Assembly (NCBI GenBank): GCA_964291265.2
Contig: OZ219747.1
Span: forward strand, 1,536,001 to 1,600,000
Length of the DNA stretch: 64,000 nucleotides
DNA from: Alphaproteobacteria bacterium
GTDB lineage: Bacteria > Pseudomonadota > Alphaproteobacteria > SP197
Reading direction: 5' to 3'
Below are positions 29,520 through 64,000 of the stretch, one piece after another. The notes beneath the pieces are model-generated. The model was not told the DNA's origin and made no database searches. It saw nothing but the letters and a program-made list of their open reading frames with translations. How positions within the stretch are numbered: position 1 is the first letter of the stretch; each line of letters starts with the position of its first letter. A program made the translations under genes and the position numbers.

Positions 29520-29740
29520 GTGTGCCAGGTGAACTGGCGGAAGGTAGGGGGTGAAAGTCCCCTGGAACGAAGGAGTAACCAAACCACGTTTCTCCGCGAG
29601 CCGTGCGTCGGTTCCCGCGAGGGGGCAGGCGAAGCGTCGGTAGCGGTGCGGATGGGCGGGGCTAATGAGCACCGAAAAAGCAGTCATCCGGGGTGCCGAG
29701 GCTTTCGTACCGGTCGAAGGCAACATCGCAGGCATCGGCA
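29520..29740 (+). ncRNA. Group II intron 5' remnant (domain I), antisense to the IS66 transposase
   Basis: Starts GTGTG (GUGYG consensus) where identity with the sister IS66 ends; contains GGGTGAAAGTCCC, GAGCCGTGCG, CCCGCGAGGG, GGCGAAGCGT, GGGTGCCGA and GAAGGCAACA, which resemble bacterial group II intron domain I motifs. No RT or domain V seen. Confidence 0.7.
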
Positions 29741-30224
29741 CCCTTGCCATGAACGGCATCAACGTTCGGCGCTGGCTTCATGAGTGGCTTGATGCCTGCG
29801 CGCAGAACGGCGGCAAGCCGCCGGATGACCTCGACCCGTGGCTGCCATGGTCGATGAGCCCGGAGCGCCGACGGGACCTCACGGAACCGGGGTGATCGAG
29901 TGCCGTTACGACGGCCGTGACTTCACCGCGCACGAGATGGCGCTGTTGCGCTCCCTGATCACCCAGCACCCCACCCGTGCGGCCATCGCCCGCGCCTTCT
30001 GCCGCGAGACCGGCTGATACAAGCCCGACGGCGGCCTCAAGAACATGATGGCGAGTGTCACCTTCCTGGCCATGCACCGCGACGGCCTCATCACCCTGCC
30101 GCCACCCAAACACCCGCCGGTCCGGCCCAAGCCCATCGTCTTCGGACCCGACAGCGAACCGCCTCTCAAACGCATCCTCAACCGGTGAATATCACCAACA
30201 ATCACAGCGTGACCGAACGCTTAC
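29740..30224 (+). mobile_element. Right-end remnant of a third IS66 type: TnpC C-terminus, DUF4338 pseudogene and terminal IR
   Basis: TLAMNGINVRRWLHEWLDAC...WLPW* (stop 29895); GTGA-coupled IECRYDGRDFT...AFCRETG*YKPDGGLK...LAMHRDGLITLPPP; ends GACCGAACGCTTAC at 30224 (reverse complement GTAAGCGTTCGGTC). Confidence 0.75.
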
Positions 30225-56276: not shown

Positions 56277-57137
56277 TCCCGGCGCAGAATGTCGTCGCCT
56301 GGGGCAACGTCGTTCCCTGGGCCGATCAGCGACAGGTCGAACAAGACCTCATCATCGGCCGTGCTCTGGTGGAGATCTTCTCCGACGACATGCTGCACGC
56401 CGCAGTGCGGGTTCGCGGCGGAACGGCGCTCAACAAGCTGCACTTCCCGAAGCCGATTAAGCTATTCCGAGGACATCGACCTGGTCCGGACTTCCGGTGG
56501 GCCAATCGGTCCCATCCTCGATCGGCTGCGTGTCGTTCTGGAACCGTGGCTGACGCGCGCGCGGTTCGATCAGAGTCCTGTCGCACCGAAGTTTCGCTTC
56601 CGGGTCGATGCCGAAGACGGCAGTGGCGTGCCGATCCGGCTGAAGGTCGAGATCAACACCCGCGAGATTCAGGCTTTCGACGGCCCGGCGGCGTTGCCGT
56701 TGAAGATCGATAATCCCTGGTTCTCGGGCGAGGCGGCCATTTCGACGTTTACGCGCGAAGAGATGCTGGCGACCAAGTTGCGTGCATTGTCGCAGCGTGA
56801 CCAAGGGCGCGATCTCTACGACCTCGCGCACGCGCTGGAGGTCTTCGAGAACCTCGATTTAGGCGGTATGGTCGAGATGTTCGAGCGGTATCTCGACCTT
56901 TCCGGACAGACGATTTCCCGGGCTCAGGCCGAGCAGCGGATGTTCGCCAAACTGGCCAACCCACACTTCTTGCTCGACCTGCGCCCCCTGCTGCCGGCTG
57001 TTCAGGCGCAGGCTCTGACGGAAGAGACAACAGCGGATTCCTTTCGCCGCGTGTTCACGATGCTCATCGATCGGCTGCCCGGCGATCCCTGGCGGAGGAC
57101 GCAGGCCATGAAAGAACGCTTCGGAATCTCATGGTGA
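56273..57137 (+). pseudogene. AbiEii nucleotidyltransferase toxin, frameshift near 56455
   Basis: QVEQDLIIGRAL...RGGTALNKLHF in one frame, YSEDIDLV...LKVEINTRE...TKLRALSQRDQGRDLYDL in the next. Confidence 0.85.
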
Positions 57138-57177
57138 CACGAGCGTGGTCAACCATGCTCATCCGTTCCGACAGGTC

Positions 57178-60100
57178 ATGACACGTCGACTGTATTCCGG
57201 GCTCTACGAAGACCTGCTGACCTCCGCTCTGGAGGCGGAAGTCAATGCCCGAACGGCGGAGGGCTGGTGGGTTGACATCGCCCCGGCGAACTCAACTGTT
57301 CGTCCCGAGCTCCTGGCCCGTCATGTTTATCACCTCCTTCGACGTGCGCTCGAAGGGATTCCCGAAGAAGACGGTGCGCAGCCGGCCAACCAGGTCGCCC
57401 TGGCGAATCGACTGGTGGAGGTCCTCGTCGAACATGGCGCAATGGCCGACGATCGGGTTGCAGACGCCGCGCGCCTGCTCCTGGAAGCTGTGGAAAGCGG
57501 AGCATTGGGCGGTACGCAATCGACAATTCCGCGCCCGACACTCTCGCTTCGTCGGACCGGCCTGCTCGTCAATGGCCGGCGCGACGTCCAGATCGCGAGC
57601 GAAATCGCGCGGGAGATCCCGAGTGCCGATCGGATCGACCTCCTCTGCGCATTCGTGCGGCATTCGGGGTTGCGGCTGTTCCGCTCCGAGCTTGCAGAAC
57701 GGGTAGGAGAGGGTGCGCGGGTGCGCGTGATCGCAAGCGTCTATACCGGGTCAACCGAACGCCGAGCGCTGGACGCGCTTGTCCATCTCGGTGCGCACGT
57801 GAAGGTCTCCTACGACGTGGCGCGGACCCGGCTTCATGCCAAGGCGTGGCTGTTCCACCGGCACAGCGGTCTGCACACCGCCTACATCGGTTCGTCAAAT
57901 CTCACCCACACGGCACAGGTCGACGGCCTCGAATGGAACGTGCGCGTGAGCGCGGCCGAGAATCCGGAGGTGATCGAGCGCTTCCAGGCGACCTTCGAAC
58001 AGTACTGGCGAGAGCCCGAGTTCGAGGACTATAAGCCCCAGCGTGACAGTGAGCGTCTCGACCACGCGCTCTCGAGACAGCGCGGCGATTCCGGAGTAGA
58101 CGACGGCACAGCGCTGTCTCTGCTGGTCGACGTCACACCGAAGCCTCACCAGGCTGTCGCGCTGGAGGCCCTCGAAATAGAGCGTCTGCGCGGATACCAC
58201 CGCAACCTCGTGGTCGCGGCGACCGGCACCGGCAAGACCTGGATTGCGGCATTCGATTTCAAGCGGCTGCGCGATCAGGGTGCGGCTCGTTCCTTGCTCT
58301 TCGTCGCGCACCGCGACGAGATCCTCCTTCAGAGTCAGCAAGTCTTTCAGCTCGTACTGCGCGAGCCGGGGTTCGGTGAGCGGCTGGTCGGCGGCGAGCG
58401 TCCACGCGCTGGTCACCACATCTTTGCCTCGGTGCAGTCTCTTGTCAACCGCATCGACGAAATCGATCCGGAAGATTTCGACGTGGTCATCGTGGACGAG
58501 TTTCATCATGCTGCCGCCACGAGCTACGAGCGCCTGCTGTCACGTCTGAGACCGAAAGTGCTCCTCGGACTCACGGCCACGCCGGAGCGCGCTGACGGCC
58601 AGTCAGTGCTGCAGTGGTTCGACGGCCGCAAAGCTTCGGAGTCCCGGCTCTGGGATGCCCTTGACCAGGGGCTGCTCTGCCCGTTTCATTATTTCGGGGT
58701 GAACGACGCGACCGATCTCTCGGCGGTCCGTTTCGAGCGCCGACGATATGTGTCTGAGGAGCTCGACAACGTGTTTACGGGCGATCACGTTCGAGCGGTT
58801 CGGATCCTCCAGGCTGTCGAGGAATTCGTGACCGACCCGCACCAGATGCGGGCGCTGGGATTCTGCGCAGGCATCGGTCACGCCCACTTCATGGCGAGGC
58901 AGTTCACCGGTTTCGACTACCCGACAATGGCGCTCGATGCCAGCACCCCCGGGGACGATCGTCGAGCGGCGCTCGCGAGACTGCGGCGCGGAGAACTTCG
59001 AGCCGTTTTCGCCGTCGATCTCTTCAACGAGGGTGTCGACCTTCCCGAAGTCGACACCGTGCTCATGCTGCGGCCGACCGAAAGCGCCACGGTGTTTCTC
59101 CAGCAGCTCGGAAGAGGGCTGCGGTGGGCCGAGGGGAAGCGGGTTCTCACTGTCCTCGACTTCGTGGGCCAGGTTCGGCGTGAGTACCGCTACGACGTGC
59201 GCTATCGAGCCCTGCTGGGGGGCACCCGCCATCAGGTCAAGCACGCCATCGAGGCGGACTTTCCACGGCTCCCACCGGGATGTGCGCTCAAACTGGATCG
59301 CGTCGCCAAGAAGACGGTGCTGCGCAATCTGAAAGAGGCGGTGCAAAATGCTCGTGCAAGCCTCGCCGATGACCTGCGCGCTCTCGGACCTGAAACACGG
59401 CTCCGCGGCTTCATGGTGGACGCCGGTGTCGAACTCGAAGAAATCTACGCACGACCCGGTTCGGGACACTGCTTTACCGAGCTCCGTCGGCGGGTTGGCT
59501 TCGAGCAGAGCGCTGTCGAAGACTCTCTCCTCAAGGCTATCGGCAAACTACTTCACGTAGACGATCGCGAGCGGATCGAGTTCTGGCGAGACCTCCTGCT
59601 GGGGGATCGTTCCAGCGGCATCGCGGAACTCGAGGGCCGCAAGCATCGCCTCGGCCTCATGTTGTTCGCGCTTCTGGGCAGCCGTCGTCAGGCGATCGAC
59701 GAGGTTGATCAGACATTGGAAAGTGTCCGTGGCTCTTCAGAATTGCGTCGCGAGACCGGCGACCTCCTGGAGATTCTCGCGGACCGCATTCGCACGGTCT
59801 CCCAGCCGCTTGATCCTGCCAGCGATGCTCCCCTGGCCAGCCACGCCACCTATACCCTGGGCGAGATTGCCGCGGCACACGGGCACACTGACAAAGGTGG
59901 CGCGCTGGTGTTTCCGCAGGGCGGGGTTCTTTGCTGTGAAACATTTCTGATCCCTGCGACGCCTTTTGTTGAACAGGGCGCGAGCGACCTGTCGGTCAGG
60001 CGCATGCCTGACCGCCGTGTGGTGGTTCTGGCTGACGCCTGTTGACGAACCTTGGACCTTTCCGGCTACCCCGCGTCTATGGCCATCAAGGGTCTGGTTC

Positions 60101-60639
60101 GTTCAGGCGTCAGAACATCATCGAAATGCAAGCGTCCTCGTCACCCACCTCCACCTGCTCGCATGATCGTGCACCAATACGCCGGATCAACGCACTTGTC
60201 CAACGGCCACAACAGGCTCACGTTTCATGGCGCGGGGTGAACAGGCACGCCGACGTTCATGACTGTTTGGAACAATGAGACGCAGACGGATCTGCTGTTC
60301 GTCACACTGGAGAAGTCGGACGGGGATTACTCTCCCACGACTCGCTACGCCGACTACCCGATCTCGCCGACCCTGTTTCACTGGGAGTCGCAGAACACCG
60401 CGTCACCCGATACGCTGACCGGGCGCCGTTACATCGAGCAACCAGACCGAGGCACGAACGTCGTCTTGTTCGTGCGCGAACGCAAGACAGATGGCCGGGG
60501 CGAAACCCTTCCGTACCACTGCCTCGGCCGTGCCCATTACCGCAGTCATGAGTCCGAACGGCCTATGAAAATACTGTGGGAGCTCGAACGCCCTATGCTC
60601 GGATGGCTCTACCAAGCGGGGAAAGTGGTAGCGGGTTGA
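57178..60639 (+). pseudogene. PLD(HKD) nuclease-SF2 helicase-DUF3427 protein interrupted by a 332-bp insertion (1041 aa restored)
   Basis: LHAKAW...GSSNLT, ATGTGKT, DEFHH, TATPER, QQLGRGLR. Removing 59934-60269 restores PQGGVL-W-NNETQTDLLFVTLEKS...FHWESQN. Confidence 0.9.
59934..60265. mobile_element. 332-bp structured non-coding insertion flanked by a TTTG direct repeat
   Basis: TTTG at 59930-59933 and 60266-60269; internal hairpins; no convincing TIR or ORF. Confidence 0.8.
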
Positions 60640-60936: not shown

Positions 60937-61659
60937 GTGAGGAAGGAAGTTCAACAACTTCGCCGCAAGGCGGTCAATTCGCTGGTGCTCTCGATCGAGC
61001 ACTTCAATTGCCCGTGGGACCGCGGGAGAAGCGAAGCCGTACTCATCTTGCTCGATCACGGCTTCGAGATGCTGCTGAAGGCGGCAATCCGACACCGCCA
61101 GGGGAAGATTCGCAAGCCGGGAGAGAAGCAGACAATCGGATTTGGTGCGTGTGTCCGAAAGGCGCTCACCGAAGCCAGCGTGAAGTTCCTGAGCGACGAG
61201 CAGGCGCTGATGCTGCGGTCGATCAACGGGCAACGCGATGCGGCGCAGCACTATCTGATCGACATGTCGGAGCACCAGCTCTACTTCTACGCGCAGGCGG
61301 GAGTAACGCTGTTCCGAGATATCCACGACGACGTGTTTGACGATGAACTCGTTGTGGAACTCCCCGAGAGAGTTCTGCCGGTGTCGACGACCGCACCCCG
61401 CGACCTGACGGCCCTGTTCGACAACGATGTGGAGGAAATCAAGGGGCTGTTGGTGCCGGGCACCCGAAGGAAGTTGGACGCGCTCGCGAAAGCGCGATGC
61501 CTGGCGGTGCTCGAAGGCGCCGTGAACGGCATCTATGAGCAGCCGAGCGACAGAGAACTCGGGAAAATCTGCACCCGCTTGGCTCGCGGCGAACACTGGA
61601 CCGCTGTCTTCCCGGGTGTTGCCTCCATCAACATCACGGCCGAAGCTGACGGACCGTAA
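60937..61659 (+). pseudogene. DUF3644 / HEPN-like protein, probably C-terminally truncated by a MITE end
   Basis: KAVNSLVLSIEHFN...FEMLLKA...RDAAQH (Rx4H). The stop TAA is supplied by the GTAA of the element at 61656. Confidence 0.7.
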
Positions 61660-63383: not shown

Positions 63384-64000
63384 GAACCCTCCCCGGCCTC
63401 GACGGCCATGATCGCCGCCAGCACTGCCAGACGTTCCCCCGGCGGCATGGCCTCGTAGCGCCGCCCCCAGTTGGCCGCCTTGCGCTTGATGCGCTGGCGG
63501 GCGGTGAAGTTCCGCCCCGCGTAGCGCGACCAGTGCACCCGGTCGGGAGCAAAGTTGAACCATACCACCTCGGTCCGCACCTGGGCCTAGGTCGTCACCT
63601 GCAGCGCCACCCGGCGCCAGCCCGCCAGAAGATCGTCATAGAGCGCTTCACGGGTGGCCCGAGACCATCACCTGGCAGGGCAGGCCCTTGAGCAGTTCAA
63701 GGAGCGCAACATGGTCCACCTCCTCGTACTCGAAGCGGTAGCGCCGCGACGAACGCCGCGTCGCGTGCAGATAGGGCGGATCGCTGTAGACCAGCTCCGG
63801 ACCCAGAAACGGGAACGAAGCCAGGAAGGAGTGAGCACAGCCGTGCACCAACTCCACCGGATAGTCGCACTCAAAGGCCCCAAGCGCACGCTCATCACGG
63901 TCAATCCCGATCGAGCGCACAGACGCAGGCTTGCGCTTCATCAGCGCGCCGCCCCCCAGATGGCTCTCGATATAGACAGAGTGCGGCGGCATCAGCGCAA
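63380..64000 (-). pseudogene. Dam-like adenine methyltransferase (frameshift near 63650, TAG near 63588; 5' end outside window)
   Basis: MPPHSVYIESHLGGGALMKRKP...LVYSDPPY...VMVSG; C-terminal EVVWFNFAP...RQRIKRKAANWGRRYEAMPPGERLAVLAAIMAVEA. Confidence 0.88.

Follow-up and report, generated by a model that had tools for sequence, protein, structure and literature searches.

A 64,000-nucleotide window of the genome of an Alphaproteobacteria bacterium (GenBank assembly GCA_964291265.2, contig OZ219747.1, positions 1,536,001 to 1,600,000) contains a 336-bp mini-element that interrupts a putative type IV methyl-directed restriction enzyme gene. We consider it very probable that this element is a deletion derivative of an IS110-group insertion sequence (IS), likely borrowing both its recombinase and its bridge RNA from a full-length relative. 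In alignment, about 140 bases from the left end of such an IS and about 180 from its right end remain in the 336-bp form, from which the recombinase gene and both guide loops are missing. No open reading frame (ORF) with DEDD and Transposase_20 domains was found in the 336 bp, and the element is not an autonomous IS110 member. Coordinates below are positions in the window unless a contig is named; G000 denotes the window's own genome, and C1 and C2 its contigs.

Insertion site and occupancy among strains

The insertion in the window is real and precise. A TTTG repeat at 59930-59933 and 60266-60269 encloses 332 bp, for a total gain of 336 bp, and an in-frame TGA lies within the insert at 60043-60045; our check of the sequence reproduced these statements, together with the hairpins, from an earlier sequence-only reading of this DNA. 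The upstream part of the host gene reads into the insert and ends at that stop, and the two gene parts match adjacent stretches of a single profile (PADLOC mREase_IV, positions 16-812 and 821-939).

Contigs from three of four runs (X1, X2 and X5) show the site empty, while it is filled in X3, and X1 contains both forms. The skip is exactly 336 bp, from 59930 to 60267 in X1 and X2 contigs and from 59929 to 60266 in one X5 contig. Runs X1-X3 belong to one study and may include the source sample, X5 comes from a separate study and carries a diverged allele, and X6 (a single contig at depth 2) was left out. X1 and X2 contigs also carry an allele that skips 394 bp (59884-60279) with other letters interposed, which represents another version of this gene region. 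In X3 the summed depth of the element reaches 7,400-41,600, compared with 235-320 for single-copy contigs, which is not a copy-number measure and serves only as a hint of many more element copies.

Copies and target sites in the genome

The element is not single-copy. The BLAST check proposed in the sequence-only reading returned at least seven full copies, 93-100% identical, together with a 424-bp variant and several copies that are partial or diverged. The seven main copies differ by 3-22 substitutions, with no identical pair. The longer variants carry differing inner segments, as if each had arisen by deletion from a single longer element.

Read on the minus strand, the DNA preceding the element is CCAAA at 9 of 11 readable junctions, CCAAG at one and CCAAT at one (a 23-bp remnant). 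The base ahead of this target is T five times, A five times and C once, and the first C is kept at all 11 junctions against a background frequency of 0.215. Beyond the element, skew is confined to the first base (C at 8/12, p 0.02). The target is a directional (W)CCAAA on the minus strand. A palindromic target had been described for the window, and GTTC...GAAC is indeed present there; its arms are 4 bp at this site and 0 bp at the seven other full sites, and because it occurs at one of eight full sites we regard it as chance.

The 4-mer that was taken for a duplication is better read as sequence shared by donor and target around the recombination core. Its two copies are unequal at 2 of 8 full sites, with a G at the last repeat position of the left junction in one copy and of the right junction in another, which would fit a staggered exchange within AAA as far as two sites can indicate. 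An ordinary DDE-family MITE (miniature inverted-repeat transposable element) with a 4-bp target duplication would account for the direct repeat flanking each copy, and yet we hold this to be extremely improbable: nearly all the repeats consist of one 4-mer, which keeps a single orientation to the element throughout, its copies are unequal at the two sites just named, there is no terminal inverted repeat (TIR), and no same-ended repeat family was found among the best 150 of 1,048 boundary groups. The combination that defines a classical MITE, a TIR with a variable target duplication, is absent here.

The element occurs in both orientations with respect to host genes: it stands on the coding strand of the gene interrupted in the window, and a serine recombinase gene on C1 carries it on the opposite strand. 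These orientations bear on a reading of the insert as a self-splicing intron or a structured RNA by which the host gene would be restored in its RNA, as its in-frame 336 bp and its partly strong folding might suggest. Insertion against the coding strand on C1 and the lack of any Rfam match over the element copies make such a role scarcely credible.

A parent IS110 subfamily in congeneric genomes

Searches with the element itself gave little. In 40 relatives the 336-bp sequence had one match, of 27 bp in a ribosomal protein operon, which we judged to be chance, and the long variant had one low-complexity match in 400 genomes of the class. Looking for a full-length form gave nothing or E≥0.1 on plasmids and E 0.3 in phages; motif pattern scans returned 0 and 0 in viral sequences and 0 and 0 in metagenomes, and two matches inside genes among genome contigs, again judged chance. 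Pfam found nothing in three open frames of one variant. A protein similarity upstream of the variant at C2:2314777 was traced to an IS66-like fragment and set aside.

The parents came to light only through a search of the genus with the variant at C2:84925-85340. Its matches, at 72-75% identity and with a best E of 7.5e-14, fall in 6 of 22 congeneric genomes, and most of them are the left non-coding end of IS110 elements or their remnants. Genome G005 has eight copies of one such element, 1.72 kb long, whose 414-aa protein contains both IS110 Pfam domains (DEDD and Transposase_20); the nearest plasmid relatives of this protein are IS110 transposases at 37-39% identity, and its best solved relative is PDB 8wt6 (E 9e-15). 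Parent and mini-element have like termini on the minus strand, starting AAA-C-x-x-[CT]-CATGA and ending GTT[AT]CA[CT]AGCAAA. A 15-nt pattern of the right end occurs in 5 of 23 genomes of the genus, all of which hold the subfamily or its remnants; the reversed control gave 0. The sequence-only reading had predicted the form of the circle junction, and rightly so, as a head-to-tail tandem of the G005 parent (L074, G005:C1:1295217-1298654) displays right end-CAAA-left end in the chromosome. No sigma-70-like site was found across this tandem junction.

Because the direct similarity of the main form to the relatives is weak, its link to IS110 runs through the longer variants and the termini. A profile built from the inner left ends of seven relatives matches three long variants (E 4.5e-18, 2.5e-11 and 4.3e-8), in which the bridge region is present and partly decayed; it is deleted in all seven main copies, none of which this relatives-only profile matches. 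Both halves of the mini-element are 81-92% identical to the longer variants, the first 144 bases being 92% identical to one variant and the right end 84% identical to another. More precisely, the left-end remnant is 92% identical to positions 8-155 of variant C2:84926-85345, whose target guide lies at about 179. Where the first codons of the parents lie, the variants also retain a relic of the gene start, weak at the protein level.

Both ends of the element are, by this link, homologous to an IS110 element, and it combines precise insertion and a short sequence shared by donor and target with the lack of a TIR, as an IS110-derived non-autonomous element would. The proposal of an IS110/IS1111 derivative retaining only its bridge-RNA-like region holds in that this is a TIR-less, non-autonomous derivative of the IS110 family; it does not hold for the region retained, since the ends were kept and the guide loops deleted, nor for the IS1111 type. 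Guides of the IS1111 group lie downstream of the gene, and we assign the parent to the IS110 group because its guides lie upstream. The statement that the insert has no convincing ORF or TIR was borne out, as neither a recombinase ORF nor a terminal inverted repeat is present.

Comparable guide-less mini-elements appear to have been derived separately in the genomes of two other species of the genus, G002 (L094 and L100; two copies, 342 bp) and G010 (L141 and L151; two copies, 281 and 299 bp). These are closer to their own or other parents than to the window element and are cut between the outer stem and the target guide, so that guide loss has likely happened three times. The G010 mini-elements sit at CCAAAA and CTAAAA, in line with the guides TCAAAA and CTAAAA in the same genome.

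Guides of the parent elements

A segment about 160-180 bases into the left end of the parents reads like the DNA to the left of the insertion. Over nine elements it agrees with the left flank at 24 of 27 comparisons of three variable positions, and 6 of 362,880 permutations were as good, in a test that leaves aside three divergent members and two variants of G000 whose left ends have decayed, and that overstates the significance by treating related elements as independent. Four close relatives (87-93% alike) carry four different guide triplets (ACC, AAC, CAC and CTC), each matching its own site, and the seven independent sites in G005 all read ACCAAA. For the more divergent members the match is 6/6 and 5/6, with a third ambiguous. 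A second segment, about 60 bases further in, is identical to the final 8 bases of the right end; it comes in three variants (ACAGCAAA, ATAGCAAA and ACGGCAAA) across four elements and varies with the right terminus (ACAGC, ATAGC and ACGGC). According to PMC11208160, the left guides for target and donor form pairs with the bottom strand, hence both read like the top strand. By this comparison of natural sites, the parent subfamily appears to possess both a left target guide and a left donor guide, and its targets look about 6 nt long and confined to the left side.

The guides also bear on a reading of the window element as a non-autonomous IS91-type (HUH, rolling-circle) element that inserts after YTTG, ends in TTTG and is moved by a Y2 transposase. 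IS91 targets 5′-CTTG or GTTC without duplication, according to the accessible portion of PMC13181058, and the genome holds broken Y2 copies and IS91-like remnants with an integrase and a zinc finger. These remnants have other ends, however, no Y2 gene is intact and none was found between the ends of our element, and across the relatives the target follows the internal guide. We consider an IS91-type origin very unlikely because IS110 homology, seen in the longer variants and at both termini, decides the matter. A search of G000 for helpers found no Y1 gene and only the broken Y2 copies, and an HUH-like HLHLL reading of one variant frame was attributed to chance and dropped given the IS110 homology. 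As separate observations, the integrase and IS91-type zinc-finger remnants (C2:3311106 and related sites) have a conserved TT ahead of the left end, and nothing but a perfect palindrome of that end is left at C1:17343.

Proposed mechanism and points that weigh against it

By analogy with IS110 biology (PMC11208160, seen in part of that source), the ends of the mini-element would be joined into a circle with a junction of the form right end-CAAA-left end. The donor guide of a helper (ACAGCAAA) would pair with this junction, the host site would be recognised by the helper's target guide (TCCAAA or ACCAAA), and recombination in the AAA run would leave CAAA on both sides without a duplication step. 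In agreement with this scheme, the last 8 nt of the right terminus, the donor arm of the mini-element, are the same as the donor guide in G005 and G013, and either the TCCAAA guide of its own long variant or the ACCAAA of G005 would suit its targets. A 22-bp donor works with bridge RNA supplied in trans for IS621, as the same portion of PMC11208160 describes, and ISPpu9 circularises a gene-less module, an IS110-dependent MITE being already on record (PMC12288879, in the part available). The helper is presumed to have been lost from the assembly or to be present only in other strains.

Several observations weigh against this reading. The similarity of the main form to the relatives is weak when compared directly, being equalled in 0-3 of 300 shuffles for the right end and 0-79 of 300 for the left end, and the significance of the permutation test is overstated as described above. 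In G000 neither a cognate recombinase (best tblastn match 27% identity, E 0.012; 0 at 1e-40) nor an intact bridge region was found, and both long variants that still have a donor guide carry it in mutated form. In the search for a right target guide, the best 4-mer was matched by 97 and 117 of 1000 random sets; a right donor guide was not recognised in a by-eye search of one alignment; and folding of the bridge region gave a consensus without the clear two loops of a bridge RNA. The circle joint was not found among the run contigs, a weak negative given that contigs drop rare forms. Four copies of a distant 315-aa IS110 in G000 were considered as helper and rejected, as their 5′ end lacks CCAAA and CAGCAAA. 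This gene lies inside a 1,978-bp unit with terminal inverted repeats of about 55 bp, unusual for IS110 (C2:2591488-2593465 and three copies).

The absence of a helper from the assembly and of a circle joint from the contigs, together with the fact that no two of the seven copies are identical, would also suit an IS110-derived element that is now an immobile relic, the presence and absence among strains being an old polymorphism. Such a reading touches only on present activity and is compatible with an IS110 origin, and we give it somewhat less than an even chance. Against it, the site is filled in some and empty in other contigs of close strains, and the X3 depth hints, within the limit given above, at many more copies.

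Beyond the origin of the mini-element from an IS110-group IS, we put forward more tentatively that the parent subfamily is a natural one-sided bridge recombinase, with a left guide of about 6 nt and no working right guides, quick reprogramming of guides, repeated formation of guide-less mini-elements with a fixed left end of 125-145 bases, and bursts to tens of copies in some strains. This wider proposal is possible, though we regard it as rather doubtful. If it were true, the fixed left end and a covarying inverted block in the mini-elements would look as if movement needed more than the donor junction.

Anatomy and folding of the element

The features of the element and of the interrupted gene are collected in Table 1. 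On the minus strand the left end is at 60265 and the right end at 59930. Instead of a terminal inverted repeat there is a short subterminal inverted block (59936-59944 against 60222-60228), both halves of which occur in 6 of 6 elements compared, with one type of compensating change (TGTAAC in five relatives and TGAAAC here). One run contig has 249 other letters in place of the 11-base deletion junction. The arms of the long hairpin lie at 60032-60041 and 60104-60113, and it includes two motifs common to the right ends of relatives (60041-60049 and 60066-60074).

Table 1. Features of the 336-bp mini-element and the gene it interrupts (window coordinates; a dot in the strand column marks features listed without a strand)
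Feature	Position	Strand	Evidence
Whole mini-element, 336 bp including one CAAA copy	59930..60265	-	Seven copies; contigs skipping 336 bp; ends shared with IS110 parents
Remnant of IS110 left non-coding end, stopping ahead of the target guide	60125..60265	-	Identity to longer variant; parents' start motif
5′ arm of predicted bridge RNA outer stem, partner arm deleted; putative role	60148..60155	-	Consensus fold of relatives
Left-end half of subterminal inverted block (TGAAAC here, TGTAAC in relatives)	60222..60228	-	Changes in step with right-end block
Deletion junction, guide loops and recombinase gene lost	60114..60124	.	Run contig; alignment with longer variants
TGA where the variants' recombinase relic ends, probable stop codon of parent gene	60110..60112	-	Alignment
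Long bulged hairpin in right end	60032..60113	.	z -5.4/-4.0; motif alignment
Perfect 8-bp hairpin with 4-nt loop in right end (GGTCAGGC/GCCTGACC)	59994..60013	.	Absent from right ends of five aligned relatives
Right terminus, equal to left donor arm (ATGTTTCACAGCAAA), including right-end half of inverted block	59930..59944	-	Pattern scan; donor guide match
Left target arm TCCAAA, host-derived	60266..60271	-	Same as the target guide kept at C2:85,100 in the longer variant
Interrupted host gene, upstream part (PLD and SF2 helicase)	57145..60045	+	Pfam; PADLOC mREase_IV E 1.7e-206
Interrupted host gene, downstream part (end of DUF3427)	60266..60639	+	Pfam DUF3427 160-277/280; PADLOC 821-939/945

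The description of the insert as highly structured applies to part of it. The hairpin region 60005-60118 folds beyond chance on both strands (z -5.4 on the plus and -4.0 on the minus strand; 0/200 shuffles on either), while 60120-60265 folds no better than chance (z +0.3) and the insert as a whole gives z -2.7 on the plus and -1.75 on the minus strand. Among five own copies, 1 of 30 hairpin pairs shows two-sided change. The suggestion that the hairpins represent a bridge-RNA fold found no support: they sit in the right end, downstream of the stop of the lost gene, and relatives share no conserved fold there in the sense of the transposase gene. In that sense the consensus of right ends is nearly unfolded, the relatives-only antisense consensus has some helices, and the right ends of relatives individually fold no better than shuffles (z above -1.9).

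Genomic context

The window segment 56289-61746 forms a small defence island around the broken type IV restriction enzyme. An AbiEii-type gene in this island lies at 56289-57137, and a PDC-S19/DUF3644 gene at 60937-61659, near an IS66 fragment, matches only positions 1-240 of a 357-position profile. An open frame at 63648-63998 resembles what we take to be a small DNA methyltransferase; similar frames occur elsewhere beside mobile elements, and this one is possibly of interest near a knocked-out methyl-directed nuclease. The genome is very rich in IS. Group II intron domains are present in the window at 29554-29755, and 18 reverse transcriptase (RT) hits were obtained genome-wide, with many near-identical copies of group II intron RTs, several of them nested in IS66-like elements.

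Comparison with known systems

The IS91 family, as represented in the available part of PMC13181058, resembles the window element in its short, directional CTTG-like target, its lack of a true duplication and its lack of a TIR. It differs in its HUH/Y2 enzyme and rolling-circle movement, and it has no sequence link to the window element.

IS621 and other IS110-group bridge recombinases, to the extent covered by the portion of PMC11208160 at hand, share with the parent the DEDD and Transposase_20 domains, guides in the left end upstream of the gene, and, for target as well as donor, a left guide with the sequence of the top strand. IS621 recognises a 7-bp left arm, a CT core and a right arm, whereas the parent appears to use about 6 nt left of the junction, with no right guide found, and its protein is longer (~415 aa) than the IS621 recombinase. 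According to preprints on half-match recombination by IS621 (10.64898/2026.08.31.748434) and on CazIS110 (10.1101/2025.10.25.684509), one arm can be enough for recognition, and the copy-out movement described there would explain a rising copy number. In those reports, one-arm use is an off-target or excision behaviour of full-match systems, whereas here it would seem, from natural sites, to be the usual pattern of insertion.

The closest known counterpart is MITEPpu9, the ssr9 module of ISPpu9 in Pseudomonas putida KT2440 (PMC12288879, as far as the accessible text extends). Both are gene-less, have IS110-group ends without a TIR and occur in several copies, and use of a transposase in trans through a circle has been proposed for MITEPpu9. 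MITEPpu9 carries a transcribed small RNA, inserts into repetitive extragenic palindromic (REP) sequences, at an AG core, and shares a genome with its helper. The window element, in contrast, has dispersed (W)CCAAA targets, breaks genes and is a plain internal deletion, with no helper found. Among the reports listed in our literature search, PMC12288879 alone described an IS110-derived mini-element, and the word 'IS110' does not occur in a MITE review (PMC10969869). The subfamily may already figure in the IS110 boundary tables of PMC11208160 or in ISfinder.

The window element works like MITEPpu9, being of IS110-group descent and not an autonomous member, and what is new is a further example of an IS110-dependent mini-element, a kind already published. 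It offers a natural case in which recombinase and guide would both be supplied in trans, and its insertion inactivates a putative type IV restriction enzyme in only part of the strains. It also leads to an IS110 subfamily, intact in G005 and G013, whose natural targets suggest short, left-only recognition. The natural pairs of guide and target make the need for both guide arms a testable question, and the apparent left-only specificity of the parent subfamily is the part that deserves experiment.

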